Positions 900-59,505 of a stretch of DNA of 64,000 bases are shown here, piece after piece. This DNA is from a bacterium (GTDB lineage Bacteria; Patescibacteriota; Minisyncoccia; UBA6257; JAUSGH01), in contig JAUSGH010000007.1 of assembly GCA_030649055.1 (NCBI GenBank), positions 1,854 through 65,853 on the forward strand. The letters run 5' to 3'. A model generated the notes under the pieces. The model made no database searches and was not told the origin of the DNA. It saw only the letters and a list, made by a program, of their open reading frames with translations. A program made the position numbers and the translations under genes. How positions within the stretch are numbered: the stretch's first letter is position 1; each line of letters begins with the position of its first letter.

Positions 900-3203
900 C
901 TAAAACTCCACCGCCTCCCCTCTCCGAAGTTTTGCGATGATGTCATTCCCCGCTTGCGCGAAGTCCGGCTGCTTTGCGATGATCGTTTCAAGTTCACGAA
1001 TCGCGTCAGCATTCCGCCCAAGCGTATGATACGTTGACGCGAGCTGAAGCCGATGACCAATATCGTCCGGGTTAACAATGATAAATGCTTTAAGCGTACC
1101 GGCGATGCGCGCCTGATTACCGGTTACTCTATACACTCGAAGCAGAAGTTCATCGGCAACATCAACTGTTCCAAGATGTTCCTTGAGCAACGCATCAACA
1201 ATGTCCTGATCGCCGTTTAATATATGCACCGCGGCAAGATTCATTCCGACCGCGCCGAAGTTTTTCGTTTTCTGATAAATAAACTCCATCGTCTCAACGG
1301 CTTTTGCTGTATTTCCCATCTGCAAATACGCGTCCGCGAGCTCAAAATACACCTGATGCTTCATCGGGGCGAGCTTCAACGCGGCGTCAAACGCCTCTAA
1401 CGCCTTGTCATACATGCCGACTTTGGAAAGAATAATCGCGAGGAAAAGCCGCGATCGTGGATCTGACGGATTCTCTGTCACCACTCGATCGGCGAGCTCA
1501 ATCGCCTGCCGCAACATTTGCGAACGAAACTCCGGAGTGAGGGAAGGTGCTACGCCTGCCGCGAGTGCAAAACGCGAATATTGCTCGGCAATTTCCATCC
1601 TCCCCAACGCCGCATCATAGGAAAGCGCGTTATTATATTCATCATACGCGCCCTGGATGTCTTGCGCGCTCTGCAGCTTCAATGCATTAAGGAGGTGCAA
1701 ATTCACAAGTAGCGGCCGGATGTTTAACGCGTACAGCGTAAGCGTGAATCCCACGACAAGAATCGCGGAAACCATTCCAATGGCTTCAATACTCGCGCTT
1801 GCTCGTTGCGCCACTAAAGGAGCGCCAGCCGTTCGCCGCTCGTCAAAACTTTCAGCATGCGCGAATGCTGTGCTTTGGATAAACGCGAGTAAAGCGAAAA
1901 ACACGGTGTAGGTCGCGATATTGTCAAACACAAAAAAGTTCTGCAGGACGTACGCGAAAAGAAGCCCAGAAATCACAATGCCTGCATGAAGTTCTCGCGA
2001 TGCTTCATATTCTATCGCGGTTGTATGCTGCTTGTCCGCCGCTTCACGCGCAAGCGCGAAGTTTTTCCATAACATCCCGACGCCGGTCACGAACATCGCG
2101 AAATACGAGATAAGTCCAAGAATACCCGCGTTGATCAGCCAATCAAAAACAATATTGTGCGAGCGGTCAAACCACGGCTCCTGCTGCCAAAGTTCCGTCT
2201 TATAGTATTTTGAGAATACAACGAGATAATTTTCCGGCCCCCAGCCCAACAATGGATGTTCCTTAAAACCTTCCCAGCTCATGTTCCAAATAGTGAAACG
2301 CGACGTAATCGTCCGCTCCCTGAAGGACATTGACGTGAGGCGTATCAACACGTCGCTTCCGCGCACGAAAGATGTATTCCTCGCCATCCAAAGTCCCGCG
2401 GGAACGATGATGAGCAACGCGAGAGCGGAAAAAATAGCGCGCCTCATGCGTTTTGAAACGGTGATATCCGTTCGCATAAAGATAAGGAAAAGTCCGCCAG
2501 CGAAAATGCTACCGAGAAGCAAAGCAAGTGTCGGGCCACGGCTTGCGGTAAAGTAGATGATGAGCAACGTGAAAAACGTCGCGGCAAGCAGGTAGTATCT
2601 CGTCCATTTGTTACGCGCGTATATCCAAAGCAACAGCGCGAACGCGACAACAAACATCAAATATGCGGCAAGATATGTCGGATTACCGATGGTTCCGTCG
2701 GTGCGGAATCCGCCCTGCGGAGAAATCAAATATCCGAGTTTTTGGAATAACGCGTACACGCCCTGCAGAAGTCCGGCAACAAGCGAACAGTGCAAGAACA
2801 CCATCCAATCTTTGCGCCGGAGTATATGCGAAAGCACAACGAAATACATTGCGAGATGAAGATAAGCAATCGCTCCTTCCATGCGCTCAAAGTTAGACCA
2901 AAAACTCCGCGTTGGGTTCTCGCCGAACACGGTCGCGAGAAGCACAACAACGACCCAGAGAAGCACGCTCCACATAAGTGGCGTCATGCGCGGCCGGTAT
3001 TTCGGATTAAATATCGCGAGCCAAATCCACGCAAAAAATGCAACTTCCACGAGCGCGCGGAATACAAACGCTTTTCCCGTGATGTACGGGAAAAACATAT
3101 TTTGGGCGATGAGGAGCGGAACAAAGGGAACGACGAATAAGGCTATCTTCGTAATCCAGAGCAAAACACGTTCAGTGGTTGATTGCATAATATTCAAAGA
3201 CAT
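900..3203 (-). CDS. O-antigen ligase-like (Wzy_C family) polytopic membrane protein fused to C-terminal TPR repeats
   Basis: 767 aa. N-terminal ~420 aa has about 10-12 hydrophobic helices with the Wzy_C/O-antigen-ligase-like pattern. C-terminal ~330 aa is tetratricopeptide-like (repeating A..Y...G....A motifs). Confidence 0.6.
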   Translation of the reverse strand: MSLNIMQSTTERVLLWITKIALFVVPFVPLLIAQNMFFPYITGKAFVFRALVEVAFFAWIWLAIFNPKYRPRMTPLMWSVLLWVVVVLLATVFGENPTRSFWSNFERMEGAIAYLHLAMYFVVLSHILRRKDWMVFLHCSLVAGLLQGVYALFQKLGYLISPQGGFRTDGTIGNPTYLAAYLMFVVAFALLLWIYARNKWTRYYLLAATFFTLLIIYFTASRGPTLALLLGSIFAGGLFLIFMRTDITVSKRMRRAIFSALALLIIVPAGLWMARNTSFVRGSDVLIRLTSMSFRERTITSRFTIWNMSWEGFKEHPLLGWGPENYLVVFSKYYKTELWQQEPWFDRSHNIVFDWLINAGILGLISYFAMFVTGVGMLWKNFALAREAADKQHTTAIEYEASRELHAGIVISGLLFAYVLQNFFVFDNIATYTVFFALLAFIQSTAFAHAESFDERRTAGAPLVAQRASASIEAIGMVSAILVVGFTLTLYALNIRPLLVNLHLLNALKLQSAQDIQGAYDEYNNALSYDAALGRMEIAEQYSRFALAAGVAPSLTPEFRSQMLRQAIELADRVVTENPSDPRSRLFLAIILSKVGMYDKALEAFDAALKLAPMKHQVYFELADAYLQMGNTAKAVETMEFIYQKTKNFGAVGMNLAAVHILNGDQDIVDALLKEHLGTVDVADELLLRVYRVTGNQARIAGTLKAFIIVNPDDIGHRLQLASTYHTLGRNADAIRELETIIAKQPDFAQAGNDIIAKLRRGEAVEF

Positions 3204-3239
3204 AGGACTTATAGGTCCTATAAGACTTATAAGTCCTAT
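3203..3239. promoter_or_regulatory. Near-palindromic tandem motif TAGGACTTATAGGTCCTAT / AAGACTTATAAGTCCTAT directly upstream of the ligase-TPR gene start; second copy at 59506-59540
   Basis: Read directly. Contains a TATAAG -10-like hexamer in minus-strand orientation ~25 nt upstream of the ATG at 3203. The 14-bp perfect palindrome GGACTTATAAGTCC recurs at 59515-59528 in the same position relative to another minus-strand gene start. Confidence 0.3.
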
Positions 3240-3244
3240 GTGTT

Positions 3245-3979
3245 CTATTTGTCAATAACTTCCGGTCCGTCGTACTCAACTTCATCATCGGTGAGCCGCC
3301 GGTACGGCTTCTCCCGCTCCAACTCCTCACCGACATGCGCGATGAGTCCCGGAAGGCGGGCAAGCACAAACACGCCGTTCCCCATGCGCGCCTGAATACC
3401 GAGCTCGGAAAGCAATACGGCAAACGCACCGTCAATGTTTAACGGAAGCAACTTGCCGGACTTCTTATTGAGCTCTTGGCCAAGCTCACCTGCCAGCGCC
3501 GCATATTTTCCCAAAAGCCCCAATGCTTTAGCGCGCTCAAATAATGCAGTAGTACGGGGGTCCGCGTCTTTATACACCTTATGCCCATAACCCGGCAATC
3601 GCTCGCCCTTAGCGGATAATTCGGCAACGATGGTTGCCGCATTCTTTCCGGATTGCAACAATTCGGCAAGCGCTTCAATAGCTCCGCCGTGATGTTTTCC
3701 AATCGTGAGAATCCCAGCCGCGAGCGCGGCGGTAAACGAAGCACCGGTGGATGCGGTGGTGCGCGCAACAAACGTTGAGGGCGCCTCAACGCCGTGCTCA
3801 GAGGCGGCAACAAGCATCGCGCCCAAAAGTTCCGCCTGTGGTTTCTCCGGCATTTTCCCCGTAAGCAACAAAAATATAATTTCCGGAAACGTCTTTGTGG
3901 CAATAAGCTCCGTCAGCTTGTAGCCGCGGATGTAGAGCTCGCCGTTCTTGTGAACGCTGATTGAAGTTTTCCATTTCAT
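3245..3979 (-). CDS. Small citrate-synthase-family protein (citryl-CoA lyase-like, ~27 kDa)
   Basis: 244 aa with the citrate synthase active-site region motif GYGHKVYK (compare GFGHRVY). Lacks the large N-terminal domain of true citrate synthases. Size matches citryl-CoA lyase / the ATP-citrate-lyase C-terminal module. Confidence 0.55.
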   Translation of the reverse strand: MKWKTSISVHKNGELYIRGYKLTELIATKTFPEIIFLLLTGKMPEKPQAELLGAMLVAASEHGVEAPSTFVARTTASTGASFTAALAAGILTIGKHHGGAIEALAELLQSGKNAATIVAELSAKGERLPGYGHKVYKDADPRTTALFERAKALGLLGKYAALAGELGQELNKKSGKLLPLNIDGAFAVLLSELGIQARMGNGVFVLARLPGLIAHVGEELEREKPYRRLTDDEVEYDGPEVIDK

Positions 3980-4035
3980 GGCATTTATTCAAGTATAGAG
4001 TATTGAGTATTAAGAAGACAGTATACACGCAGGGA

Positions 4036-4422
4036 CTAACTGTTATCGCGAGAACTTTTGACTAACCCAGTGATGAGTTTGTGGACGATAACGGTTTGCT
4101 GAGCAATGCTGCTAAAATCAAATTTGGAAATATATCCGACGTCGCGCGCTACAAGAAGCTGATTCTGAACTTCAGTGAGAGAACCTTGCGCCATGTCATA
4201 AAAACGGTTCTTTTCTATTCGACTCCGCCGAGAAAAACCCTCCGCGATGTTTGACGAAACCGAAACTGCTGCGCGCCGTAGCTGATTACTCAAACCAAAA
4301 AGTTCTTCCTTCGGAAAACTTTTCGTAAGACGGTAGACGATTACTACAAGCTCATGGGCCTTACGCCACGCCACCAAATCGGTGAATGACTGAATTTTCT
4401 CTTGAGATTTTTGCGATTCCAT
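4036..4422 (-). CDS. Four-helix-bundle protein (23S rRNA intervening-sequence-type protein family)
   Basis: 128 aa. Pattern W.KA..L.V.VY.....FPKEE.FGL..QLRRAA.S...NIAEG is characteristic of the TIGR02436-type four-helix bundle proteins. Confidence 0.6.
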   Translation of the reverse strand: MESQKSQEKIQSFTDLVAWRKAHELVVIVYRLTKSFPKEELFGLSNQLRRAAVSVSSNIAEGFSRRSRIEKNRFYDMAQGSLTEVQNQLLVARDVGYISKFDFSSIAQQTVIVHKLITGLVKSSRDNS

Positions 4423-4437
4423 ACTGTCTTCTCAATA

Positions 4438-5358
4438 CTATATACTCAATACCTTCTTAATGAGTCCCGGCACCTCATCCAAAATATCCGCCACCATGAC
4501 TCCCGCCGCACGAAGCGCCTTTACTTTTGACGCGTAACTCCCGCGGCCTTTGGAAACAATCGCGCCCGCGTGGCCGAGCACGGTTCCTTGCGGCAGGGTT
4601 TCCGTAAACTTTCCGGCGACAAGCGCGACAACAGGCTTCGTAAACTTTTTTTTGCGAATGAATTCGGCCGCAAGTTCTTCATAAGTTCCGCCAACCTCGC
4701 CGAAAAGCACCACCGCTTTGGTCTCCGGATCTTTTTCAAAAAGCTCCAACAGGTCGGCAAAGTCCGAACCGATAATCGCATCTCCTCCGATTCCGATGAC
4801 AGTGCTTTGTCCTAATTTTTCGCGCGAAAGCGTTGAAGAAATCTCCGCCGTCATTCCCCCGCTTTTTGAAATAACGCCGATATGGCCGGGCGTGAATACG
4901 TTTTTAATTTCGCCGCTTCCGATGCTTCCAATTTTCCCGAGTCCGGGTGAAATAATGCCGACCGACGACGGGCCGACGACGCGCACGCCGACACGACGCG
5001 CCGCCGCAACAATGTATGCCGCATCTTGTGCCGTCACATGCTCGGTCAGAATATCAATAAGCGGAATACCCGCGTCAATGGCTTCCAACGCGGCGTCTTT
5101 TACAAACGCAGCCGGCACCGTGATGAGCGAGGTGTTGATTTCGGGATGTTGTTGAAGCGCCTCAAACACGGCGTTATACACCGGAATTCCCTCCACGCTT
5201 TGCCCGCCCTTGCCCGGCGTTACTCCGGCAACAACCGCCGTGCCATAAGCCAGCATCTCCTTGCACGCGCGCGAACCCTCGTTGCCGGTTATTCCTTGTA
5301 CAAGCACACTCGTTTTTTTATCAATAAGTATTGCCATAGTTATTTTTTTCATTGTCAT
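4438..5358 (-). CDS. sucD: Succinyl-CoA synthetase alpha-subunit family protein (CoA-binding; could be citryl-CoA synthetase small subunit)
   Basis: 306 aa. Near-colinear with SucD: ILIDKKT.V.VQGITG, GVTPGKGG, SKSGGMT, GIGGD, and the phosphohistidine loop GHAGAIV. Confidence 0.85.
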   Translation of the reverse strand: MTMKKITMAILIDKKTSVLVQGITGNEGSRACKEMLAYGTAVVAGVTPGKGGQSVEGIPVYNAVFEALQQHPEINTSLITVPAAFVKDAALEAIDAGIPLIDILTEHVTAQDAAYIVAAARRVGVRVVGPSSVGIISPGLGKIGSIGSGEIKNVFTPGHIGVISKSGGMTAEISSTLSREKLGQSTVIGIGGDAIIGSDFADLLELFEKDPETKAVVLFGEVGGTYEELAAEFIRKKKFTKPVVALVAGKFTETLPQGTVLGHAGAIVSKGRGSYASKVKALRAAGVMVADILDEVPGLIKKVLSI

Positions 5359-5470
5359 CCTGAGTTCGCCAGCAGGCCGGTTGATTGATTATAAATAATA
5401 TATCCGAAGAGGTGCCCGCGGCCGACGAAGGATCTCTCGGAGATTCTTCGGCTCATCGCCTCAGAATGAC
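5354..5470. repeat. Palindromic repeat element, family B (GTCATYCTGAG ... GAAGGATCTC-GAGATTCTTCG ... TCAGAATGAC)
   Basis: Read directly. Terminal inverted repeats GTCATCCTGAG / CTCAGAATGAC. Internal palindrome GAAGGATCTCTCGGAGATTCTTCG. Related copies at 34274-34342 and 60624-60687. Confidence 0.6.
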
Positions 5471-5484
5471 ACTGTAGTCTTACT

Positions 5485-6594
5485 TTATTGTTTCGATGCT
5501 TTATTGCTTCGATACGCCAATGCTACGACGCGCTTCGCGCTCTCCGCCATTGATGTTTTTCCGTCAAACACAGTGAACCGATATCCTTCTTTTTTTGCGA
5601 CTTCTCGCAACATCCGGAACGCTTGCTGCCCCCGCGGACCGTCACGACGGATAACAATCGGAAATGTCGGCTTCGGTTTCACTTCGCGCAGCCCCTCAAT
5701 AAACCCAACCATGGTTTCGTAAATATCGGTGAAATTCGCCGTACCGCCGATGACCCACAGCCCCTTCAAGCCGTGGCGCGCGAGCACACGCTTTGTTAAA
5801 TCACGCACCACTTCCTTCGGCGGATTTCCGGAATATTCGGTATAGTTCGCCGGCCATCCGTTATATTTCAAGAGCGCGTCAATGTTTAAAAGCGACGCTC
5901 CGCCTCCCGAAGCCAAAATCGCGATGTCCCCATCCATATCAATAAACCTGCGTTCACCGGGTTTTATTTTTTCGTCATCCAAAACAACCTTCGCGTCCGC
6001 CGCAACAAACTTTCCGTCTGGGGTCTTCATCAGCGGATTAATTTCGGCAAGCAAGGCATATTCGCCGAAGAAACAATTCCATAAACTTTTGACAATCGGC
6101 ACGAGGCCGCCGACATCGGCAAACGGGATGCCGGCGCGGAGCAACGCGCTACGGATAAAAAATGGGTGCAATCCTCCGATGACGTCAACCGGAAACACCT
6201 CCGCTTTCTTTGTGCCTGTGCCGCCGGAAACGGTTGCGGCCAAAACCGGCGCGCGATGATCTGTGGAGTAACTGAAACTTATATAATATTCCGCCACTGC
6301 CGCAATTTTTTGCTCAACCAACACTTTTTTCACGCGCTCACCGCGCAGCGTTTTGGAGAGTAAATCGGCGACTGCCGTTTTTGCCGCGCGCTCATCATCG
6401 GCAAAAAGAATTCCGCCACTGCGCGCGCGATCGCCAAAAGTAACCTGCGCCTTCACCGCGTATGGGCCGGAAAACTTCGGCCCGACACCAGGACGGGAAA
6501 CAAGCATGCCCTCCGGCACCAAAATTCCATACTTTTTGAATAACTTTTTTCCTTCGTGTTCGAATAAATTCATAAGGTATTCCTTCGATTTCAC
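5485..6594 (-). CDS. sucC: Succinyl-CoA synthetase beta-subunit family ATP-grasp protein (could be citryl-CoA synthetase large subunit)
   Basis: 369 aa. N-terminal ATP-grasp (NL.E.EGK.LF..YGI.VP...) and C-terminal CoA-ligase domain (DGDIAILASGGGASLLNIDAL) as in SucC. Confidence 0.8.
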   Translation of the reverse strand: MKSKEYLMNLFEHEGKKLFKKYGILVPEGMLVSRPGVGPKFSGPYAVKAQVTFGDRARSGGILFADDERAAKTAVADLLSKTLRGERVKKVLVEQKIAAVAEYYISFSYSTDHRAPVLAATVSGGTGTKKAEVFPVDVIGGLHPFFIRSALLRAGIPFADVGGLVPIVKSLWNCFFGEYALLAEINPLMKTPDGKFVAADAKVVLDDEKIKPGERRFIDMDGDIAILASGGGASLLNIDALLKYNGWPANYTEYSGNPPKEVVRDLTKRVLARHGLKGLWVIGGTANFTDIYETMVGFIEGLREVKPKPTFPIVIRRDGPRGQQAFRMLREVAKKEGYRFTVFDGKTSMAESAKRVVALAYRSNKASKQ

Positions 6595-6641: not shown

Positions 6642-8123
6642 TTACACAATCGTCCGCATAATCATGCGTAGCGTGTGATACGGACCGGTCGCGAACCGCC
6701 GGCCGATAAAAATGATTCCGGCAATGTATGCAAGCGCCGGAACGCCAAGCAACGCAATGAAGAGCGGCGCGCTCAACTTCGCGCCATACATATATAACGG
6801 CGCGGCAGCGAGCATAGTCATCAGTGTTGCGCCGAAGATGACCGCGATCGGAATCTTCACGTCGGCAAACCGCAGCCCTAAATAGCGGAAAGACCAGTAA
6901 CTCGCGATAAGCGCCAAGGCGAAACCGTTGATAAGCATAGCAACCGCCGCTCCGTAAATACTGAAGTACCGCGTGAGCACCAAAAGCAGCGGCGCGGAAA
7001 TGAAAAATTGCGCGACCGACATTTTGAACCGCACATCAGGAAATCCCGCGCCGTCAAGCAATGGATACGTAATCACCGCGAATCCTTCAAACGTGAGCGC
7101 AACAACGAGCACCTTCATCGCCGCAACCATACCCAGCCACTTCGCTCCCAAAAGAATCTGCGCGAGCGGTTCACCAAAAAGTAAAATAATCACGAGAAAC
7201 GGAATCATCGTGAGGAGCGCGATATCAAAACTCCGCAAAAATCCTTCGCGCAGTTTTTGCATGTCCCCTTGAATGCGCGCGTATGCCGGAAATCCGACTT
7301 TCGTCACGATCGTAAAAAGCGCCGAGGACGGCAATGAAGCGATGCTGTTCGCGCGAGAATACAATCCCAAATTCGCCGGACCGGAAAAACGGCCGACAAT
7401 AGACGATTCAACAAGATAATTGATTTGCCCCAAGGCATTTTGCGCCATGACCCACCCGCCGTACGAACTCAAGTCCCGCAAGCGCCCGAATTGGAAAGAA
7501 AACTTTGGCCGGTGCGGATGCCCCGCGTATTGCACTACAACCCCCGCAATGTACTGCGCGACGTAACCAAAAAAAAGCGCGGCGGCAGTTGGATGCAGAA
7601 ACGCGAAAGGTATCGCCGTCGCCGTAAACGCAAGCTGACCGGCAATGTCGCGCATAAACAGCGTCCGGAAATTCATCTCCTTAAAAAAGAACATGTTGCC
7701 GAGGTTGCTCAAGGACTGGATGACCGTAAGAATTCCGCCGTAACGCAACAGCGCAAGCGCGGTCGGATCAGTGATGTGAAAAAATATCGCGACAAACGGA
7801 GCGGCGAGATAAATAAGGACGGCGATGCCGATAGCTCTCAAAAAATTAAACGTCCAGTACACGTCAAGATAGGCACGAATATCTCCCTGCCGCTGGATGA
7901 TCGCGTTTTCAAACCCCGGCATTGAAGCGGTGTTCAAAATGCCGACGAACATCAGAATGATGGTGATGATACCGTAGTCATCGGGCGCAAGCGTCCGCGC
8001 CAAAACAAAAAAAGTCCCGAAGCCGACGATCTTCTGGGCAACGAGTCCCAACCCCGACCACTTCCCTCCTTGTATTGCTTTATGAAGCGTCCCTTCGGTT
8101 GATTCCATTGAGATAGATATCAA
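6642..8123 (-). CDS. wzx: Wzx-type oligosaccharide flippase (MOP/polysaccharide biosynthesis protein family)
   Basis: 493 aa, ~12-14 TM helices. N-terminal K..I.GG.WSGLG....K..GF.T..VLAR.L.P.DYG pattern is typical of Wzx/RfbX. Confidence 0.7.
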   Translation of the reverse strand: MISISMESTEGTLHKAIQGGKWSGLGLVAQKIVGFGTFFVLARTLAPDDYGIITIILMFVGILNTASMPGFENAIIQRQGDIRAYLDVYWTFNFLRAIGIAVLIYLAAPFVAIFFHITDPTALALLRYGGILTVIQSLSNLGNMFFFKEMNFRTLFMRDIAGQLAFTATAIPFAFLHPTAAALFFGYVAQYIAGVVVQYAGHPHRPKFSFQFGRLRDLSSYGGWVMAQNALGQINYLVESSIVGRFSGPANLGLYSRANSIASLPSSALFTIVTKVGFPAYARIQGDMQKLREGFLRSFDIALLTMIPFLVIILLFGEPLAQILLGAKWLGMVAAMKVLVVALTFEGFAVITYPLLDGAGFPDVRFKMSVAQFFISAPLLLVLTRYFSIYGAAVAMLINGFALALIASYWSFRYLGLRFADVKIPIAVIFGATLMTMLAAAPLYMYGAKLSAPLFIALLGVPALAYIAGIIFIGRRFATGPYHTLRMIMRTIV

Positions 8124-9256: not shown

Positions 9257-9931
9257 CTAATACTTCCTTATCTTCGCGATGAGATCGCGATGTTCCGGAT
9301 ACAGCGCGCGAAGCTCGCGAAGTGCGTCCTCCTGCCAGCCAGTTTCTTTCGTCACGCTTTCGGGCCTGCGGATATAAGTGAATAGCGGCTTTGGAATCCG
9401 AAAGCCCTTCCAGCGGCCGAGCGTCCGCAGCAGCAAATCATATTCGGGAAATTTCAGACCTTCACGGTAACATCCTTCCGCGGCTAACCGCTCCCTGCGA
9501 TACATCATCCCGATGGCGATGCTTGAAAATATATTTTCGGTGCTGACGACACGCGTAACGTCGCCCATGCGCTCCTCGTAATCGGAATACACGAAATCAA
9601 TCTCGGGATTGGCGTCAAGCACATCGGTTGTCTCACGCAAAAGGTCCGGCCCGAACGCATCGTCGCTATCAAGCTTGGTGACATAGGTGCCAACCGCCGC
9701 GCGGAACCCGGCATTCGCCGCGCCGACAAAACCGCGGTTCGCCTGCCGGATGACGCGGATAGCATTGCCGAACCGCGCGAGTATCTGCGGCGTCTCATCG
9801 GTGGAGCCGTCGTCAATAACGACGATCTCGTAATCGCTTTTCGGAAACTGCTGCGTGAGCGCACTCTGTAACGAGCGTTCAATAAACGCAGCGGAGTTAT
9901 ATGCCGTAATGACGATTGATGCTTTTATCAT
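9257..9931 (-). CDS. Glycosyltransferase family 2 (soluble, short)
   Basis: 224 aa. VITAYNSA...L.S...Q, DYEIVVIDDGSTD, and a DXD-type KLDSDD motif. Confidence 0.8.
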   Translation of the reverse strand: MIKASIVITAYNSAAFIERSLQSALTQQFPKSDYEIVVIDDGSTDETPQILARFGNAIRVIRQANRGFVGAANAGFRAAVGTYVTKLDSDDAFGPDLLRETTDVLDANPEIDFVYSDYEERMGDVTRVVSTENIFSSIAIGMMYRRERLAAEGCYREGLKFPEYDLLLRTLGRWKGFRIPKPLFTYIRRPESVTKETGWQEDALRELRALYPEHRDLIAKIRKY

Positions 9932-11031
9932 AAGCCCCCTTGTATATGGTCGCGCTGTAACGGCGTCCCGAACGCAATATCGCTCGCGGCTTTTTTGCCG
10001 ATGACCTTATCGTAAAACTTCGTTTCAAGACCGAACGCCGGCCGCACATCCCGGACATTTTCTTTGGTGAACAGTTCACCTTTTTTGATATCCTTCCCCG
10101 CAAACAGCGACCGGCGCCACCGTTTATTGTATTCTTCCAACTTATTATTCGGCCCATAATGCACCTCGCCAAGCATCGTAGCCGGAACCGTTTCCTTCTC
10201 GCCGCGTTTTTCTAAGTCACGAATTTTTGCAATCATTTCTTTAAGTTCGTGCGGCTCCAAAGAAAACTCAGCATCCGGCCCGCCGGTTTTTCTATCTAAA
10301 ATCAAGTGCTTCTCAACAATAGACGCGCCCGCACGCACCGCCATCACTGGGATCTCAACGCCTGCGTTGTTATCGGAAAATCCGCTGACGACCCCGAAAC
10401 GTTCGCGGATGTCCTGAATGGTTTTCAAATTCATATCTTCCCACTTCGGATTGCCGGAGTATCCCGTCACGCAATGCAGTATCGCGATATCCTTCGCGCC
10501 ATACGCGCGGAGCGTATCAATGGCAAACCGCGCCTCGTCTTCCGATGCGTAACCGATGGATATAATCACGGGCTTTCCGGTACGCGCGACTTTTTTGAGC
10601 AACACAAAATCCGTCGCCTCGTATGACGCGATTTTGAACGCCGGCACATCCATTTTGGTCAAAAAATCCACGGCGGTTTCGTCAAACGGAGTTGAAAAAA
10701 GCATGACGCCAAGTTTATCCGCAAGCTTTTTCAACTTCGGTTGCCATTCCCAAGGCGTATACGCGGTTTGATACAGCTGATATAACGTCTTACCTTTCCA
10801 CAATTCCGGATTATCTTCGCCACCGACTCTAAACCACTCTTTGTCACAGTTTAAGGTCATCGTATCCGGCGTATATGTTTGGAGTTTTACTGCGTCAACG
10901 CCCGCCGCTGCGGCGGCCTCCACCAGGCGCACGGCCTCTTCATATTTTTGATGATGATTACCCGAAAGCTCCGCAACGATAAAACACGGATTCCCCGGAC
11001 CGATTTTTTTATTGCCGATGTTCATAGTCAT
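9928..11031 (-). CDS. pseI: Nonulosonic acid synthase (pseudaminic/legionaminic/N-acetylneuraminic acid synthase family, NeuB/PseI-like) with C-terminal SAF domain
   Basis: 367 aa. IGPGNPCFIVAELSGNHH motif, TIM-barrel NeuB pattern, C-terminal SAF-like domain. 4-nt overlap with the downstream GT2. Confidence 0.85.
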   Translation of the reverse strand: MTMNIGNKKIGPGNPCFIVAELSGNHHQKYEEAVRLVEAAAAAGVDAVKLQTYTPDTMTLNCDKEWFRVGGEDNPELWKGKTLYQLYQTAYTPWEWQPKLKKLADKLGVMLFSTPFDETAVDFLTKMDVPAFKIASYEATDFVLLKKVARTGKPVIISIGYASEDEARFAIDTLRAYGAKDIAILHCVTGYSGNPKWEDMNLKTIQDIRERFGVVSGFSDNNAGVEIPVMAVRAGASIVEKHLILDRKTGGPDAEFSLEPHELKEMIAKIRDLEKRGEKETVPATMLGEVHYGPNNKLEEYNKRWRRSLFAGKDIKKGELFTKENVRDVRPAFGLETKFYDKVIGKKAASDIAFGTPLQRDHIQGGL

Positions 11032-11042
11032 GTATATAACAC

Positions 11043-11537
11043 CTACCGCGACGCGATCATTTCAATACATTCGTGGCCTTCGTAATCAACGATGCCGCGA
11101 TTTTCATATCCTGCTTTTTGAAATGTCTTCACGGATGCAAAGTTATCGGTTTTGATGTGCGCAAAAATCTTTTTGATGTTCGGAAAGTCTTTAAACAATG
11201 ATTGACCCGCGGAACGCAAAGCTTCGCTACCGATCCCCTTTCCACGAAAACGCTCCGTAACAGAAACACTGACCTCGGCGGATTCTCCGCCGTCATCAAC
11301 ATCAAATCGCACCTGACCCGCTGACGTGCCGTCCGCCTCAACGACGTACAATACGCGTTTAGGATTTCGCAAAGAGCTCTTGAACCACGCGTCGTGTGTG
11401 GACGCATCAACGCGCTCCGTATGCCAAGATTGCGCGCGAACGCTGTCCTCGTTGCGGAGTTGGAACAAAAAATCCTTGTCACGTTCTTCCGCGCGACGCA
11501 CGCGTATCGTTTGCGGCATGTTATCACTAGACCTCAT
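11043..11537 (-). CDS. GNAT family N-acetyltransferase (PseH-like candidate)
   Basis: 164 aa. GNAT acetyl-CoA binding motif RFRGKGIGSEAL, lying between the synthase and the HisF-like gene. Confidence 0.75.
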   Translation of the reverse strand: MRSSDNMPQTIRVRRAEERDKDFLFQLRNEDSVRAQSWHTERVDASTHDAWFKSSLRNPKRVLYVVEADGTSAGQVRFDVDDGGESAEVSVSVTERFRGKGIGSEALRSAGQSLFKDFPNIKKIFAHIKTDNFASVKTFQKAGYENRGIVDYEGHECIEMIASR

Positions 11538-11691
11538 GTATAATTATTTTCGTTATGCAGGAGGACCATCATTTTTTAAGGAGGAACATTGCATCCTTCT
11601 TGGTCGGGTCGTTTACTCAAACGCTTTGGCCGCGAACATGCTGCGGATATTACTTGACCACAATTCTACACCGTAACGGATTATATCCTTT

Positions 11692-12450
11692 TTAAACCAT
11701 CCTCACCGGAATGCCGGCATCCCACATCCGCTGCTTAATGCTGTTGGCGGTATGGCCGGAATAATGAAACATACTTGCCAAAGAAACCGCATCCGCATGA
11801 CCGACCAAAACCGCGTCAATAATATCCTGCACCTTCCCCGCTCCGCCAGAAGCAATGACCGGAACGGAAACGGCGCCAGCCACCGCCTTAATGAGATCTA
11901 AGTCGTAACCCTCCATGGTGCCATCCTTATCGATGGAAGTAAGCAAAATTTCTCCCGCTCCGCGACACTCCATTTCCCTTGCCCAGTGAACCGCCGATAT
12001 TCCGGAATTTTCCAGTCCACGATTTTTAAAGACAACATAATCGTTACCGACCTTTTTTGCGTCCATGGATAATACTACGCATTGACTGCCGAAAGTTCTC
12101 GCCGCCAAAGCGACGAATTCCGGGTTTTGCAACGCCTCGCTGTTCACGGCTATTTTATCCGCCCCTATTTTCAATAACATTCCGATGTCATCCAAGGAAT
12201 GAATGCCACCGCCGATAGTCAGCGGCATAAAACATTCCTTCGCGATTCCCTGAACAATTTCAAAAGCCGGTGGGCGGTGTTCTTCGGTAGCCTTTAAATC
12301 AATAAAAATTAATTCATCCACGTTCCGGCTGTTATAAACTCTCGCCATCTGTATGGGATTGCCAAGATTCCTTAATCCATCGAATTTGATTGTTTTGACA
12401 AGATTAATCCCATTAAACAGCATGCATGGGATAACTCTGGTTTTAAGCAT
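11692..12450 (-). CDS. Imidazole glycerol phosphate synthase cyclase-subunit homolog (HisF-like, WbuZ/PseA-partner type)
   Basis: 252 aa. HisF TIM-barrel motifs (RVIPC.....G..VK, IASGGAG). 8-nt overlap with the HisH-like gene. Confidence 0.85.
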   Translation of the reverse strand: MLKTRVIPCMLFNGINLVKTIKFDGLRNLGNPIQMARVYNSRNVDELIFIDLKATEEHRPPAFEIVQGIAKECFMPLTIGGGIHSLDDIGMLLKIGADKIAVNSEALQNPEFVALAARTFGSQCVVLSMDAKKVGNDYVVFKNRGLENSGISAVHWAREMECRGAGEILLTSIDKDGTMEGYDLDLIKAVAGAVSVPVIASGGAGKVQDIIDAVLVGHADAVSLASMFHYSGHTANSIKQRMWDAGIPVRMV

Positions 12451-13081
12451 ACTCAGTAATTTGTTTTAAAAAATTTTCTAAAAACTTCCATCCGCTATGT
12501 TGGCTTTTCTCCGGATGAAACTGCGCGGCGAAAATATTATCGCGTTGAATGCCGGCGGCAAACCTTTCTCCGTAATCGCAGGTTGCGGAAATAATCGCGA
12601 TGTCGTCGGGGCGGACACAATAACTGTGGACAAAATAAAAATTTTTATCCTCAATACCGTCAAAAAGACGGCTGTTCCCATTAACCGGTTCAACATTGTC
12701 CCAGCCGACATGAGGTAGCCGCAAACTTCCGGCATCCAGCTTAACGGTTTTGCCTTTAATAAAACCCAACCCGCGCGTTTCTCCGAACTCATAACCGACA
12801 TCTGTCAGTAGCTGCATGCCAAGACAAATGCCTAAAAACGGAACTTTCTCCTCCAGCACTCTTTGAGCTAAAATGTCCGCCAAACCGAAACGCTTAAGAT
12901 TCTCCATTCCGTCCCCAAACGCGCCTACTCCGGGAAGCACTAAGAAATCCGCGCGGGAAATTTCATCTTGTTTGCGGGAAACGACAACCGATGCGCCGAT
13001 TTTTTCGAATGTTTTCGCAACCGAAGCAACATTGCCCATCTCATAATCAATGATGATGCCGTTAAGCACTTTCATTGTCAT
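12443..13081 (-). CDS. Glutamine amidotransferase, HisH-like (WbuY-type)
   Basis: 212 aa. Class I GATase motifs: LPGVGAFG, GICLGMQLL, FHPEKS. Confidence 0.85.
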   Translation of the reverse strand: MTMKVLNGIIIDYEMGNVASVAKTFEKIGASVVVSRKQDEISRADFLVLPGVGAFGDGMENLKRFGLADILAQRVLEEKVPFLGICLGMQLLTDVGYEFGETRGLGFIKGKTVKLDAGSLRLPHVGWDNVEPVNGNSRLFDGIEDKNFYFVHSYCVRPDDIAIISATCDYGERFAAGIQRDNIFAAQFHPEKSQHSGWKFLENFLKQITEYA

Positions 13082-14222
13082 AATTTACTTTAACTAAATT
13101 CCCGGCAATATCCCGTAAAAACTTTCCGTGAGAATCCTTTTTGAAAATCTGCGGATTGGTAAAAGAATCCATAACGGCATCAATCTCCTCCTTGCTCATG
13201 CCGGAATATTCCGAAAATTCTTTAACTCCGTAATACGGATACTTGCCGTCATACTTTCGGACCAACTCCATTCCCTCTTCCCTGGTAATCCGGCCATTCC
13301 TAATGTCCAAGCAGGCATGATCCGTAGCCCTGCAAAAACCGTATTTGAGAAATTTCAAATAATCGTGGACGCCAACCGTACCCTCATCCAGATTTTCATA
13401 ATTGGTGTATGTTCCCTCAACCGGTCCGTCTTCCTTAACGGCAAATCCGTATCGCTTGACGATTTCATTTTGCTTTCTTGCGTCCCACTTAAAGTAATAG
13501 CCCAGGAATAGCCCGGTCGCGCCGACCCGTTTTAACTCATTGTCGCTCGGGTAAGAATACGCGAGCAGATCTTTTTTGGTAATCCCGCCGACGCCAATCA
13601 TGTCATCCACTCTGTTTCCCAAAAGTCCGCCGAATTCCTCAAGCCAGCGCCGGTCAAGATAATTTTTCTCGGTGGCGGACGCCGGTCCCCCATATTCCAA
13701 CTGGGAATTTTCCCCCCAAATAATCAGAGGGACATTATACTGGACAGCGGTCCGGACCGGAATCGTAAAAATACCGATGTGATTGGGCCATTCGTTGTCG
13801 CCGACCCGTTTAAAGGCCTCGATGGCCATTTTCTTGTATACATCCGGATTTTTTTTGAAATAAACGAAGTCGCAGCCGAATGTCCGGATATTCTCCCGAT
13901 TTTTTCTTCCCAATTCCGTAATATGGGTCTGCTCGAAAGAAACCAGCAGTGGATTCAGACCGTACACTTTTTTCATCACATAAACCTGGTAATGGCTATC
14001 CTTGCCGCCACTGACCGGAATAATGCAATCGTAATTGCTGCCGTCTTTGGAGCGGTATGTTTCAATAATGGCTTCAAATTCTTTTTTCCTCGCTTCCCAG
14101 TCAATGCCGGTTTCTTTCTTTACAGCCGACAGGCAGGCATCGCAAACTCCGGCCTGATCAAAAAATAAATCCGGCTTTGTATTGGGCATGACGCATTTTT
14201 TGCAGTAGGTGATTTTAGTCAT
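13062..14222 (-). CDS. N-acetyl sugar amidotransferase (PP-loop ATP pyrophosphatase; WbuX/PseA/LegX family)
   Basis: 386 aa. N-terminal Cys cluster CKKCVMPNTKPD...CDAC and PP-loop SGGKDS. Forms a trio with the HisH/HisF-like genes. Confidence 0.8.
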   Translation of the reverse strand: MTKITYCKKCVMPNTKPDLFFDQAGVCDACLSAVKKETGIDWEARKKEFEAIIETYRSKDGSNYDCIIPVSGGKDSHYQVYVMKKVYGLNPLLVSFEQTHITELGRKNRENIRTFGCDFVYFKKNPDVYKKMAIEAFKRVGDNEWPNHIGIFTIPVRTAVQYNVPLIIWGENSQLEYGGPASATEKNYLDRRWLEEFGGLLGNRVDDMIGVGGITKKDLLAYSYPSDNELKRVGATGLFLGYYFKWDARKQNEIVKRYGFAVKEDGPVEGTYTNYENLDEGTVGVHDYLKFLKYGFCRATDHACLDIRNGRITREEGMELVRKYDGKYPYYGVKEFSEYSGMSKEEIDAVMDSFTNPQIFKKDSHGKFLRDIAGNLVKVNYDNESA

Positions 14223-14279
14223 ACGATTTTTGCATGCCTCTCTAGTAACCAGATACTCACGCCTACGTTCACGACGAGC

Positions 14280-14981
14280 TTATATTTTCTTCAATAAAAA
14301 CATCTCGTCCACATTATTACCATTCACGTATTTATATTTTTCTCTTTTTACCAATCTGAGATTTGGAAACAAATCCAGATACATTTGGACGAAATCTCTT
14401 TTCCAAAGCCGGTCCTTATGGCCGCGGTAATCAATCGCCTGAGGTTTTTCCGAAAAATACTCCATCCCCCAGATATATTTCTTGCTGGTCCGATAAATTT
14501 CCCGCATGGCTTTTTTGAGATCCTTCGGAGCAATATGAATCAAAACTCCGGAGGTGAATACCAAATCAAAATAATCATCCTTAAAAGGAATATCAAAAGC
14601 GCTTCCCTGGATAATATTGATTCCTTTCGTGTGCGTTTGAGCTATCGCAACGGCGACGTTAAAAATTTCCACTCCGTAAAGATTTTGATGGCCTTGTGAT
14701 TGCAAAAGTGCCAATTGGTTTCCGACGCTGCTCCCAACCTCCAGGATATTATTCAACTTCAATGTACCCAAAAACCGGGTATTCATTACCGATCTGGACA
14801 GCCCGTATTCTTTCATATAAAGGTCGTCTAATTCCCTGTTGGTGAACAGGTTCCTTTCTATGTACCCTTTGTCAAAATCCGATTGCCAAAATTTTTCCTG
14901 GTCAGTGAATTTTCTATTTTTCATATAATACGATGATAACCAACAATTGCCCGCAATGCAAAATTCTACCGCATCACGCAT
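14280..14981 (-). CDS. Class I SAM-dependent methyltransferase (possibly nonulosonic-acid-associated methylase)
   Basis: 233 aa. Motif I LEVGSSVGNQL and a DLVFTSGVLIHI motif. Confidence 0.6.
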   Translation of the reverse strand: MRDAVEFCIAGNCWLSSYYMKNRKFTDQEKFWQSDFDKGYIERNLFTNRELDDLYMKEYGLSRSVMNTRFLGTLKLNNILEVGSSVGNQLALLQSQGHQNLYGVEIFNVAVAIAQTHTKGINIIQGSAFDIPFKDDYFDLVFTSGVLIHIAPKDLKKAMREIYRTSKKYIWGMEYFSEKPQAIDYRGHKDRLWKRDFVQMYLDLFPNLRLVKREKYKYVNGNNVDEMFLLKKI

Positions 14982-15042
14982 CGGACTTTTTTATAACGAT
15001 TTCATATATGACGGCGCCATACTCAACGCGATAGTCCTCTTT

Positions 15043-15609
15043 TTACTTACTATCAATCTCAGCTTCGAGTACTGACCAACAATCAACGTCCCGATAGCCG
15101 CGCGGCATCCGGAACGCGTCGCGGCGACGCCCTTCAAAAACCCAGTTTAGTTTACGCATGATGGCGTTAAAGACCGGGTGCGCCGATTCAGCCCATAACC
15201 GATGAAGCTTTAAAACTTTAAATGCCAGCTTGGTCGCGAGAATAATTGCTTCAGTCGCATAGCCCTTGCCCCAGACGCTCCGATCGCCAATCATAATCGA
15301 AAGCTCGGCGCTCTTGTTTTCCTTGTCGATAGCGATAATAAAGATATTCCCAATATGTTTCTCCCCATCTTTAATGAACACGGCAAAATGGCGATCGGGC
15401 GACTGTCGCGTTGACGCGATAAAATCCCTTACGTCCTTAAGCGAAAATTTTTTTCCTCGCCGTCGGGTGTAAAGCTGAACCTTGGCGTCGTTTAACCAGT
15501 GAACATACCTCAGTGTCGCCTCAGCCGGTGATAATTCCCTTAACCCGAGCCGCTCACTGGCAATAAGATACGTTGAATGCTTTTTCATTTTTTGGACGAC
15601 GCCTCGCAA
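15043..15609 (-). CDS. GNAT family N-acetyltransferase (RimL-like)
   Basis: 188 aa. GNAT core VWGKGYATEA. Confidence 0.7.
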   Translation of the reverse strand: MRGVVQKMKKHSTYLIASERLGLRELSPAEATLRYVHWLNDAKVQLYTRRRGKKFSLKDVRDFIASTRQSPDRHFAVFIKDGEKHIGNIFIIAIDKENKSAELSIMIGDRSVWGKGYATEAIILATKLAFKVLKLHRLWAESAHPVFNAIMRKLNWVFEGRRRDAFRMPRGYRDVDCWSVLEAEIDSK

Positions 15610-15635
15610 GAAGACAAGGCAGTAATGAAGATTAC

Positions 15636-16313
15636 TTATTTCCGCAGAATCGCTTCCGCGCGATCAAAATCTTCAGGGTAATCAATATCAACATTTTCAT
15701 CATTGTCCATGATGAGCGGCAGTAACTTATCGGCGACAACCTGCCGCATCAGGATATTGGTGCGCGTCAAATATATCGCCCCGTTTTCTTTGAACAGCGG
15801 CTTTGACATTTGGCGGTTTTCCAACTTTCGCGGATACAGACGCTCGTAGCCACCCTCAACCTCAACCCAAAAATGTCCCTTATCGTATGTGCCGCTGACA
15901 ACCGAGTCGGCATCGTTTGCCAGCGCCAGATCCACGGCTTGCTGTATCCGCTCGGTTTTCAATAAGGGCGAAGTCGGATACACCAAGAGGACGTAATCCG
16001 GACTATATCCTTCCTTACGCTTCAGCTCTTTCACCGCGTGCTGCAACACCGGCAGCGTCGCGACCTCATCGGTCGCAAGTTCCATCGGACGGATAAAGGG
16101 TACCTCGGCACCGAACTTTTTTGCCACCTCGGCAATTTCCTTGTCTTCGGTGCTCACAATGACCCGGTCAATGCCTTTCACTTTTTTTACGGAGGCGATG
16201 ATGTAGCTGATCATCGGTTTTCCGGCGAGCAGCTTGATATTTTTTCTCGGCACCCCTTTTGAACCTCCCCGGGCCGGAATAACAACAATTATTTTCTTTT
16301 TATTTTTTTCCAT
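15636..16313 (-). CDS. pseF: Acylneuraminate cytidylyltransferase family (CMP-nonulosonic acid synthetase, NeuA/PseF-like)
   Basis: 225 aa. IIVVIPARGGSKGVPRKN motif and the rest of the CMP-NeuAc synthetase fold pattern. Confidence 0.85.
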   Translation of the reverse strand: MEKNKKKIIVVIPARGGSKGVPRKNIKLLAGKPMISYIIASVKKVKGIDRVIVSTEDKEIAEVAKKFGAEVPFIRPMELATDEVATLPVLQHAVKELKRKEGYSPDYVLLVYPTSPLLKTERIQQAVDLALANDADSVVSGTYDKGHFWVEVEGGYERLYPRKLENRQMSKPLFKENGAIYLTRTNILMRQVVADKLLPLIMDNDENVDIDYPEDFDRAEAILRK

Positions 16314-17344: not shown

Positions 17345-17347
17345 ATA

Positions 17348-18691: not shown

Positions 18692-18707
18692 TGAGCGCCG
18701 ACGCTTT

Positions 18708-19745: not shown

Positions 19746-19749
19746 AAAA

Positions 19750-20883: not shown

Positions 20884-20899
20884 AGGGCTAGAACTAAAA

Positions 20900-21907: not shown

Positions 21908-21976
21908 AGGTTCTGAATATAACCGCCAATTGACTAGAATAGTAACCCATCGCGCCTGAAAAAGCAATGCGGCGCG

Positions 21977-35147: not shown

Positions 35148-35165
35148 AGATGAAACGAAACCGCG

Positions 35166-43479: not shown

Positions 43480-43482
43480 ACG

Positions 43483-59496: not shown

Positions 59497-59505
59497 AGTG
59501 GTATT

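Follow-up and report, generated by a model that had tools for sequence, protein, structure and literature searches.

Organization of the locus

The window, that is, the whole 64-kb stretch of DNA analysed here, carries on its minus strand three genes that probably code for a two-subunit citryl-CoA synthetase (CCS) and a citryl-CoA lyase (CCL). The ccsA-like gene (5485..6573) specifies the large (beta) subunit of 362 aa with the domains PF08442 and PF16114 (GenBank MDO8584830.1), the ccsB-like gene (4438..5358) the small (alpha) subunit of 306 aa with PF02629, PF00549 and a GHAGA phosphohistidine loop, and ccl (3245..3979) the lyase of 244 aa, a protein of the NF004869 family (GenBank MDO8584827.1). 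The ccsB-like gene and ccl are separate genes 458 nt apart, with a gene for a four-helix-bundle protein (4036-4422, minus strand; 128 aa, PF05635 at 124.8 bits) between them. An earlier note on this DNA had listed the same four open reading frames as SucC-like, SucD-like, four-helix-bundle and citrate-synthase-family genes; all of them are present, and all are on the minus strand. Two of its details had to be amended. The computed mass of the 244-aa protein is 26.1 kDa and not 27 kDa. The SucC-like frame extends to a GTG at 6594 (5485-6594, 369 aa), which had been taken as its beginning, but the true start is likely the ATG at 6573, since a protein begun there lines up with the first residue of SucC and CcsA and agrees with the GenBank entry. 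The 64-kb window yielded no further homolog of SucC, SucD or citrate synthase, and a scan of 30 flanking ORFs, reaching to about 38 kb, detected no TCA enzymes.

The spacer between the ccsA-like and ccsB-like genes (5359..5484, minus strand) is 126 nt long, against 22 nt in the closest relative, L088. It contains at 5442-5470 a copy (GTCATTCTGAGGCGATGAGCCGAAGAATC) of a hairpin-type intergenic family, GTCATTC-N-GAATC, represented by eight copies in the window; the gene set is thus interrupted by a repeat element, as previously described. The 126-nt spacer contains no terminator-like site and its RNA fold is unremarkable (z -1.45). The four-helix-bundle gene that interrupts the module belongs to an inserted cassette (3993..4452, minus strand) whose two ends are 32-nt inverted repeats (3993-4024 and 4421-4452). 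Over a block of 508 nt (3966-4473) the sequence shows 100% identity to L088, where the flanking genes are 74-81% identical. Between the stop of ccl and the start of the Wzy-like gene lies a palindrome (3200..3241, strand unassigned) with an 18-bp stem of 9-nt units; it belongs to family D4, of which another site lies at 59502-59549, and may serve as a terminator or as a processing hairpin.

The module sits within a pseudaminic-acid-like glycan locus. Directly downstream of ccl is a gene for a Wzy_C (O-antigen ligase/polymerase-like) protein with TPR repeats (900..3203), and directly upstream of the ccsA-like gene one for a Wzx-type polysaccharide flippase (Polysacc_synt_3; 6642..8123), both on the minus strand. 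A nonulosonic-acid (pseudaminic-acid-like) sugar pathway follows at 9928..21967, also on the minus strand. It comprises NeuB+SAF (9928-11031), a PseH-like GNAT (11043-11537), HisF/HisH-like genes (11692-13081), a further GNAT (15043-15609), a cytidylyltransferase (15636-16313), two DegT genes (17348-18691 and 19750-20883), a Gfo/Idh gene (18708-19985) and a PseB-like gene (20900-21967). The two GNAT N-acetyltransferases of this pathway are consumers of acetyl-CoA.

Relationships of the three proteins

The beta subunit combines an ATP-grasp domain (PF08442, 88.1 bits) with a Citrate_bind domain (PF16114, 78.4 bits, cut-off 26.8), which occupies its C-terminal half and replaces the Ligase_CoA domain of succinyl-CoA synthetase (SCS). 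Its original description as an ATP-grasp SucC-like subunit is confirmed, with a citrate-binding unit as the second domain. The SucC equivalog models are missed (NF001913, 154.2 vs 370 bits; TIGR01016, 153.5 vs 375.55), and the best PDB match is the large subunit of Hydrogenobacter thermophilus CCS (6hxq_B, 172 bits, compared with 121 for SCS beta). Taken alone, the C-terminal domain scores 75.5 bits with CcsA, 73.6 with AclB and at most 33.8 with SCS; the N-terminal ATP-grasp half matches SCS beta (93.9 bits) and CcsA (88.3 bits) equally well. In a neighbour-joining tree of the C-terminal domain, SCS was split from CcsA, ATP-citrate lyase (ACL) and the CPR beta family with 100% bootstrap support, which places this SucC homolog outside SCS. 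In the same tree the beta family and ACL were grouped apart from CcsA in 89% of bootstraps. Because it groups with ACL and not with Aquificae CcsA, the CPR beta family would be a candidate 'unfused ACL' that may be relevant to the origin of ACL.

Three motifs of the beta subunit correspond to residues of human ACLY: EYSG to S308/G309, GGTANFT to N346/F347/T348 and IRRDGP to R378/R379. Four of these residues, G309, N346, T348 and R379, we take to be the citrate contacts in the ACLY–citrate structure 3MWD. The three motifs are at least 95% conserved across 75 homologs; SCS has GGGA, GGI(V/T)R and R(L/V)(E/A)G at the EYSG, ANFT and RR sites.

In the alpha subunit, both the CoA-binding domain PF02629 and the CoA-ligase domain PF00549 were matched, and the phosphohistidine loop ascribed earlier to the SucD-like protein was located as GHAGA at 262-266 of 306 aa, where it holds H263. 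Among 72 homologs, conservation of this residue and of E221 is at least 95%. The protein scores 315 bits with the SCS alpha subunit 2yv2, presumably from Aeropyrum pernix, and 232 bits with CcsB (6hxq_A), and it falls under the SucD equivalog cut-offs (316 vs 353 and 312 vs 336 bits). The family resemblance of alpha is not diagnostic. Substrate choice resides in beta, so the likeness of alpha to SCS would leave the CCS reading standing.

The lyase matches Pfam Citrate_synt at positions 163-355 of 357 only, and so lacks the N-terminal region of complete citrate synthases. This agrees with its first description as a truncated citrate-synthase-family protein with a GYGHKVY motif, found here at 130-136. 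It passes the NCBIfam citryl-CoA lyase model NF004869 with 254.7 bits (cut-off 212). With the free CCL of H. thermophilus (6hxp_A) it gives 208 bits at 43% identity, whereas no citrate synthase exceeds 91 bits and the C-terminal module of Chlorobium ACL gives only 59. Motif comparison identifies H97 (HHGGA), H133 (GYGHKVY), R142 (DPR), D183 (NIDGA) and R208, which align with the motifs of CCL and bacterial citrate synthases and show at least 95% conservation among 65 homologs. Their counterparts in pig citrate synthase we take to be H274, H320, R329, D375 and R401. The alignment check proposed for this protein thus recovered the His/His/Asp triad together with two oxaloacetate-binding arginines, and the intact catalytic residues of the 65 CCL homologs argue that the 244-aa protein is not a decaying gene.

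Several other identifications were considered and rejected. They include succinyl-CoA synthetase (SucCD), for which the SucC cut-offs are missed, the motifs differ and the tree split stands at 100%; full-length citrate synthase (GltA/CitZ, about 360-430 aa), as the protein has 244 aa and its best citrate-synthase model score is 117.6 against a cut-off of 332; and ATP-citrate lyase proper (AclA/AclB or ACLY), the alpha and CCL modules being unfused here.

Conservation of the gene order and its neighbours

Of about 80 species-representative loci, almost all of them from Patescibacteria and some from DPANN, essentially all have the order ccsA-like, ccsB-like, ccl. By ORF calling, the three genes lie in this order on one strand in 61 of 66 loci, and the remaining cases were rescued by tblastn except for one (L034). 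The intergenic gaps within the module have medians of 1 and 8 nt, the flanking genes vary between loci, and the ccsB-like gene and ccl are unfused in the loci examined.

The earlier note had considered a position beside a glycan locus unexpected. This view must be revised, as amino-sugar genes occur within 8 kb of the module in 55 of 82 loci, a count drawn from related genomes whose loci are not phylogenetically independent. These neighbours are GlmS (32 loci), YvcK-like proteins (28 loci), GlmU-like proteins, small GNATs and DegT; GlmU-type genes are recurrent too, and a GNAT gene directly adjoins the module in 18 of 30 cases. At least five different arrangements of this linkage exist, and the acetyltransferase can lie to either side of the module. 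Some lineages have a nearby GlmU homolog of 262 aa that covers GlmU positions 2-234 and is devoid of the acetyltransferase half; in these a small GNAT adjoins the module. Next to the module, neither a citrate transporter nor an enzyme that consumes oxaloacetate was detected.

Possible function and relation to known systems

PF16114 on beta, the passing of NF004869 by the lyase, the 100% split from SCS and the near-universal synteny bear out the CCS plus CCL domain set that had been proposed for this locus. Apart from the inventory of TCA genes, which covered this window alone, the checks suggested in the earlier note all favoured its reading. We estimate at about 0.7 the probability that, as sequence comparison suggests, the three genes code for a two-enzyme, ATP-dependent CCS/CCL system of citrate cleavage whose acetyl-CoA is destined mainly for N-acetyltransferases. 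The substrate, the reaction direction and the physiological role of the module we infer as follows. The ATP-grasp half of beta (362 aa) would bind ATP, whose phosphate would then move onto His263 of alpha. Citrate held in the ACL-type C-terminal domain of beta would be phosphorylated and then attacked by CoA bound to alpha, giving citryl-CoA, which the free 244-aa lyase would split into acetyl-CoA and oxaloacetate using the triad His97/His133/Asp183 and the oxaloacetate-binding Arg142 and Arg208. The module would in this way convert citrate scavenged from the host or the community into acetyl-CoA, chiefly for the N-acetyltransferases that serve UDP-GlcNAc and N-acetylated surface sugars; in the window, this acetyl-CoA would be used by the two GNATs that the pseudaminic-acid-like locus contains.

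The overall ACL or CCS/CCL reaction is near equilibrium, and its direction is consequently not fixed by sequence. The same enzymes could run in reverse, CCL condensing acetyl-CoA with oxaloacetate and CCS freeing citrate and ATP, which would endow a fermenter with an energy-conserving citrate synthase. Such a role would suit a citrate-synthase homolog with an intact triad and the reliance of CPR bacteria on substrate-level phosphorylation. However, the recurrent neighbours (GNATs and GlmU-type proteins) use acetyl-CoA and do not make it, no flank showed an aconitase, an isocitrate dehydrogenase or a citrate exporter, and a steady oxaloacetate supply would be demanded of a reduced genome. We therefore regard the reverse direction as unlikely. 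The binding domain of beta is just 34-38% identical to those of characterised CcsA, AclB and ACLY, and the lyase 43% identical to H. thermophilus CCL, values that would be compatible with a CCS/CCL-like pair for another hydroxy-acid (malate/malyl-CoA, citramalate, 2-methylcitrate or homocitrate). This is quite improbable, as the presumed citrate-contact positions of ACLY (G309, N346, T348 and R379) are kept and nearly invariant in 75 homologs, the oxaloacetate-binding arginines of citrate synthase are retained in the lyase, and the curated citryl-CoA lyase model is passed.

An ordinary succinyl-CoA synthetase accompanied by a degraded citrate synthase, both left over from a lost TCA cycle, is hardly credible and already contradicted by the data. 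It could invoke the 54% identity of alpha to the presumed A. pernix SCS alpha and the label 'succinyl-CoA synthetase beta subunit' that JGI pipelines attach to relatives of beta. Yet beta reaches 154 bits against the 370-bit SucC cut-off, Citrate_bind replaces the SCS domain, the SCS motifs are absent and the tree separates the beta family with 100% support. Moreover, the 244-aa protein is a full-length conserved member of the CCL family, and nearly all of the loci preserve the order of the three genes.

Returning to citrate cleavage by CCS and CCL, we tentatively suggest, with less than even confidence, that the unfused CCS/CCL of CPR/Patescibacteria and some DPANN is a dedicated acetyl-CoA generator for amino-sugar N-acetylation rather than something left over from the (r)TCA cycle. 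Citrate cleavage would feed the acetyltransferases of UDP-GlcNAc synthesis (GlmS, YvcK-like, small GNAT, GlmU-type) and surface nonulosonic-acid glycans, and the module is possibly the main source of acetyl-CoA in the organisms that carry it. CPR lineages are generally devoid of a TCA cycle, as is well established.

The enzyme type is not new, as CCS/CCL homologs in CPR and DPANN are already known, and GenBank already names these exact proteins (MDO8584827.1 as 'citryl-CoA lyase'). One preprint notes the CPR and DPANN homologs and gives -5.9 kJ/mol for citryl-CoA synthesis (bioRxiv 10.1101/2022.10.25.513756), and another proposes that Patescibacteria and DPANN take up citrate and cleave it by means of ACL-like genes (bioRxiv 10.1101/2024.08.02.606368), an idea raised for Nanohaloarchaea in a 2016 paper (PMC4766312). 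ATP-dependent formation of acetyl-CoA and oxaloacetate from citrate is suggested for the CPR/DPANN homologs in the available text of all three (PMC4766312; 10.1101/2022.10.25.513756; 10.1101/2024.08.02.606368), which describes neither conservation of the three-gene operon nor a linkage to GlmS, YvcK, GNAT and GlmU or to a glycan locus.

What the present analysis adds is the proposed physiological assignment, together with a correction of the mis-annotations 'succinyl-CoA synthetase' and 'citrate synthase'. CPR bacteria build peptidoglycan and elaborate N-acetylated surface glycans, yet are mostly devoid of the TCA cycle and of fatty-acid synthesis, and the origin of their acetyl-CoA is rarely addressed. 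A conserved citrate-cleaving operon beside amino-sugar steps that consume acetyl-CoA would provide a concrete, testable answer, and the module points to citrate as a metabolite drawn from hosts or the community. Should this hold, the eukaryotic connection of ACLY with the hexosamine pathway would have a counterpart in prokaryotes.

Among known systems, SucC/SucD belong to the same superfamily and have the same alpha/beta architecture as the module. They differ in that beta here has an ACL-type C-terminal substrate domain, both subunits fall below the SucC/SucD cut-offs, and beta has other motifs in place of the GGI(V/T)R and R(L/V)(E/A)G of SCS. A DPANN member of the family is found in an Iainarchaeum MAG (L060), whose beta is 61% identical to that of the window in the binding domain. 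The CcsA/CcsB and Ccl of H. thermophilus (Aquificae; 6HXQ, 6HXP) are three separate polypeptides, as here, and share a beta subunit with ATP-grasp and citrate-binding domains, an alpha subunit with the phosphohistidine loop and a free triad lyase of about 250 aa. However, beta is about 65 aa shorter here (362 vs 429 aa in CcsA), its binding-domain motifs are ACL-type (AGGGAS-like, EYSG, ANFT) where CcsA has FGGGGS, DIGG and ANNT, and alpha is nearer to SCS alpha than to CcsB. Unlike in that system, the three genes form one tight cluster, and the host is a non-autotrophic CPR bacterium with a reduced genome and not an rTCA autotroph. AclA/AclB (Chlorobium limicola, 6HXJ; Methanothrix, 6HXI) and ACLY have PF16114, the contact residues and the overall chemistry in common with the module, although in them alpha is fused to the lyase module and here the genes are separate. 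The role suggested for the module would resemble that of ACLY in cytosolic acetyl-CoA supply, including that of the hexosamine pathway.

Genes and enzymes of the module

All four co-directional ORFs that the earlier note had claimed were present in the ORF listing and lie consecutively on the minus strand: a ccsA-like ORF encoding the SucC-like beta subunit (5485-6594, 369 aa from a GTG), a ccsB-like ORF encoding the SucD-like alpha subunit (4438-5358, 306 aa), a four-helix-bundle gene (4036-4422, 128 aa) and ccl, encoding the putative lyase (3245-3979, 244 aa). The true start of ccsA is most likely the ATG at 6573, because from there the alignment begins at position 1 of both SucC and CcsA; the 362-aa product has an exact match in GenBank. 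The co-directional run extends beyond the module on both sides. A Wzx-type flippase gene ends 47 nt upstream and, 41 nt downstream, a gene for a Wzy_C/TPR (Wzy-like) protein begins, so that these two genes of a glycan locus enclose the module. Within the 64 kb no further homolog of the four genes was detected, and scanning the window for tRNAs and Rfam families gave no hits.

The beta subunit combines ATP-grasp_2 with PF16114, ‘ATP citrate lyase citrate-binding’ (78.4 bits, cut-off 26.8), and stays far below the NCBI SucC models (154 versus 370 bits). Its closest solved structure is the large subunit of the Hydrogenobacter thermophilus citryl-CoA synthetase (CcsA, 6hxq_B; 172 bits), whereas the best succinyl-CoA synthetase (SCS) beta subunit reaches 121 bits. 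The C-terminal domain alone scores 75.5 bits with CcsA, 73.6 with Chlorobium AclB, 52 with human ATP-citrate lyase (ACLY) and at most 34 with SCS beta subunits. In the alignment, the motifs shared by the window protein and its relatives are (S/A)GGGAS, ANYTEYSGNP, GGTANFTDI and IVIRR(D/G)GP, which match human ACLY residues 281-285, 306-309 (S308, G309), 345-348 (N346, F347, T348) and 378-382 (R378, R379) in computed numbering; we take these positions to be citrate contacts, as in the ACLY–citrate structure 3MWD. In SCS beta subunits these positions read NGAGL, DxGGGA, GGI(V/T)R and R(L/V)(E/A)G. The ATP-citrate lyase (ACL)-type positions and the ATP-grasp residues are at least 95 per cent conserved in 75 homologs.

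Of the Pfam citrate synthase model, the 244-aa protein covers just the C-terminal 193 positions; with NCBIfam NF004869, ‘citryl-CoA lyase’, it scores 254.7 bits, above the cut-off of 212. It is 43 per cent identical to the H. thermophilus citryl-CoA lyase (6hxp_A, 208 bits), compared with 91 bits for the best citrate synthase and at most 60 bits for the C-terminal modules of ACL. H97 (HHGGA), H133 (GYGHKVY) and D183 (NIDGA) align with the catalytic His/His/Asp of citrate synthase, and R142 (DPR) and R208 with its two oxaloacetate-binding arginines; all five residues are at least 95 per cent conserved in 65 homologs.

A neighbour-joining tree was built from 141 columns of the beta C-terminal domain, with 300 bootstraps and explicit monophyly tests. 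It comprised 17 family members, H. thermophilus CcsA, Chlorobium AclB, human ACLY, the SCS beta subunit 3ufx and E. coli SucC, the reference sequences being taken from PDB alignments and from L087, one of the loci with relatives of the module. SCS split from everything else in 100 per cent of bootstraps. The CPR/DPANN family grouped with ACL, leaving the Aquificae CcsA outside, in 89 per cent; with so few reference sequences, a closer affinity of the CPR/DPANN beta subunit to ACL than to Aquificae CcsA is only a lead. The reading as citryl-CoA synthetase plus lyase advanced in the earlier note is supported by PF16114, NF004869, the motifs and the tree: the phylogeny it had proposed, run here on beta, places this subunit outside SCS, and the residue alignment finds the whole catalytic triad kept in the small protein.

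Conservation and amino-sugar context

Databases contain more than 1,700 relatives of the 362-aa protein. Among the best 120, both domains are always present, nearly all lengths fall within 345-413 aa, and the named ones are Patescibacteria. When one genome per GTDB species was scanned, with flanks of up to 10 kb, 299 stretches were found to encode a beta relative. The best 80 are almost all from Patescibacteria (Parcubacteria-group candidates, Microgenomates, Magasanik- and Doudnabacteria), and one is from an Iainarchaeum (DPANN) MAG. The highest identity to the window beta subunit was only 60 per cent, so the species of the window is absent from these representatives.

ORF calling recovered the beta–alpha–lyase order, with all three genes co-directional, in 61 of the 66 loci with enough downstream sequence, with median gaps of 1 and 8 nt. 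The missing genes of the remaining loci were recovered by tblastn, except at L034 (Yanofskybacteria MAG JAUYJF010000033.1, 8001-9056), the only locus at which ccsB and ccl do not follow ccsA within the 2.2 kb available downstream. At about 15 loci the module is interrupted by unrelated genes spanning 0.3-2.9 kb, so its interruption in the window is not unusual. These inserts are heterogeneous (NUDIX in two, DUF2268 in one, a methyltransferase in one, six without a Pfam match), and a single shared mobile family was rejected as their source.

The same three-gene module occurs in a DPANN archaeal MAG at L060 (Iainarchaeum, JAGVWE010000002.1, 7992-10898) and also at L061. The beta binding domain of L060 is 61 per cent identical to that of the window and nests among CPR sequences in the tree, which suggests either CPR–DPANN transfer or mis-binning.

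The genes flanking the module vary by lineage. Clustering of all flanking ORFs identified as recurrent neighbours GlmS (32 loci), GNAT acetyltransferases (30 loci; an approximately 134-aa type in 18 and an Acetyltransf_3 type in 8), a CofD-family protein whose best NCBIfam match is the UDP-GlcNAc-binding protein YvcK (28), DegT aminotransferases (12), epimerases (10), a 262-aa protein consisting only of the uridylyltransferase half of GlmU (10), archaeal-type bifunctional GlmU (9) and Gfo/Idh oxidoreductases (7). At least one of them lies in the flank examined at 55 of 82 loci. The GNAT gene immediately adjoins the module in 18 of 30 cases, against about 15 per cent expected from the available gene slots. 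Because the arrangement differs between lineages (GlmS-A-B-C-GNAT-HAD-CofD, NTP transferase-GlmS-CofD-GNAT-A-B-C, Gfo-DegT-...-GNAT-A-B-C or A-B-GNAT-C, where A-B-C are ccsA, ccsB and ccl), the proximity of the module to amino-sugar genes has outlived rearrangement.

Identification of the small adjacent GNAT as the GlcN6P N-acetyltransferase GNA1 was rejected, as it gave only generic-GNAT PDB matches of 22-25 bits and no NCBIfam equivalog. In the Magasanikbacteria-type loci L069-L086 (for example L074, 1601-2389, and L080, 6785-7189), GlmU is represented near the module by the 262-aa uridylyltransferase half alone, and a 134-aa GNAT adjoins ccsA. This set is consistent with a UDP-GlcNAc pathway that is split or eukaryote-like, the acetylation being left to a separate GNAT.

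The glycan locus of the window holds, at 9928-21967, a near-complete pseudaminic-/legionaminic-acid-like nonulosonic acid set in a CPR-type genome: PseB-like, two DegT, Gfo/Idh, NeuB with SAF, a CMP-sugar cytidylyltransferase, a HisH/HisF-like amidotransferase/cyclase and two GNATs whose best curated match is PseH. Many glycosyltransferases are also encoded. The contexts share acetyl-CoA-dependent N-acetylation of amino sugars, from which, on context evidence from related genomes, we infer that the role of the module is acetyl-CoA supply.

A putative mobile cassette and repeats in the window

The four-helix-bundle gene (PF05635) lies in a 460-nt cassette (3993-4452) with 32-nt inverted repeats at both ends, and the last codons and stop of ccsB come from its outer repeat arm. 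A 508-nt block comprising the cassette gene and spacers (3966-4473) is 100 per cent identical to positions ~3950-4460 of the closest relative, L088, a contig from another groundwater metagenome with the same gene order, whereas nucleotide identity is only 74-81 per cent for ccsA, ccsB, ccl and the flippase and Wzy genes. The cassette thus looks like a recently exchanged mobile element at the same insertion site. The exact four-helix-bundle protein was seen on 16 contigs.

Hairpin-type intergenic repeats of the form GTCATTC-(8-30 nt)-GAATC are present in eight copies (5442-5470, 26787, 27144, 28343, 34273, 35050, 43395 and 60687), with inverted partners at 35102-35148 and 43434-43480. The unusual length of the ccsA–ccsB spacer (126 nt, versus 22 nt in the closest relative) is due to one of these copies. 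The predicted fold of this spacer is no more stable than that of shuffled sequences (z -1.45), and the spacer contains no terminator-like site. Directly past the ccl stop, a palindrome with an 18-bp stem and 9-nt units (TATAGGTCC/TATAAGACT...; 3200-3241) could act as a terminator or recognition site; a related copy lies at 59502-59549. A 50-nt element, AAATCCTCCGCC(C/T)TTCAGGCACCTCCTTTA.CAAAGGAGGAAT, with an internal CCTCCTTT/AAAGGAGG inverted repeat, occurs in three copies, 84-100 per cent identical (28777-28826, 56474-56523 and 57254-57303).

Proposed reaction and relation to previous work

We propose that the alpha/beta enzyme would form citryl-CoA in an ATP-dependent manner via phospho-His263 and that the free lyase would split it into acetyl-CoA and oxaloacetate, the pathway running in the direction of cleavage and its acetyl-CoA feeding N-acetyltransferases. 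To this reading as a whole we give a probability of about 0.7. Operation in the reverse, ATP-yielding direction would leave the enzyme assignment intact and is unlikely, the amino-sugar context pointing to acetyl-CoA supply; slightly less probable still is a different hydroxy-acid as substrate, given the presumed citrate contacts conserved in beta. The alpha subunit, with CoA_binding and Ligase_CoA domains and a GHAGA loop, falls slightly under the NCBI SucD cut-off (316 versus 353 bits) and is closer to the archaeal SCS alpha subunit 2yv2 (315 bits, 54 per cent identity) than to CcsB (232 bits). Members of this enzyme superfamily bind the acid substrate through beta, so the affiliation of alpha is not diagnostic for succinate versus citrate. 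A plain SCS accompanied by a decayed citrate synthase is contradicted by the domains, model cut-offs, conserved residues, motifs and beta tree, and we consider it very improbable. The outcome is one testable physiological hypothesis.

The enzyme assignment itself is not new. GenBank names two of the window proteins ‘citryl-CoA lyase’ (MDO8584827.1) and ‘ATP citrate lyase citrate-binding domain-containing protein’ (MDO8584830.1). A 2022 preprint reports that CPR and DPANN sequences labelled SCS or citrate synthase are monophyletic with citryl-CoA synthetase or lyase (bioRxiv 10.1101/2022.10.25.513756), a 2024 preprint proposes citrate uptake and ACL-type cleavage for Patescibacteria and DPANN (bioRxiv 10.1101/2024.08.02.606368), and a 2016 paper makes the same citrate-cleavage suggestion for Nanohaloarchaea (PMC4766312). 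Our literature search found no paper joining Patescibacteria, citrate lyase, acetyl-CoA and UDP-GlcNAc. The conservation of the operon and its linkage to amino-sugar genes appear to be undescribed in the literature searched.
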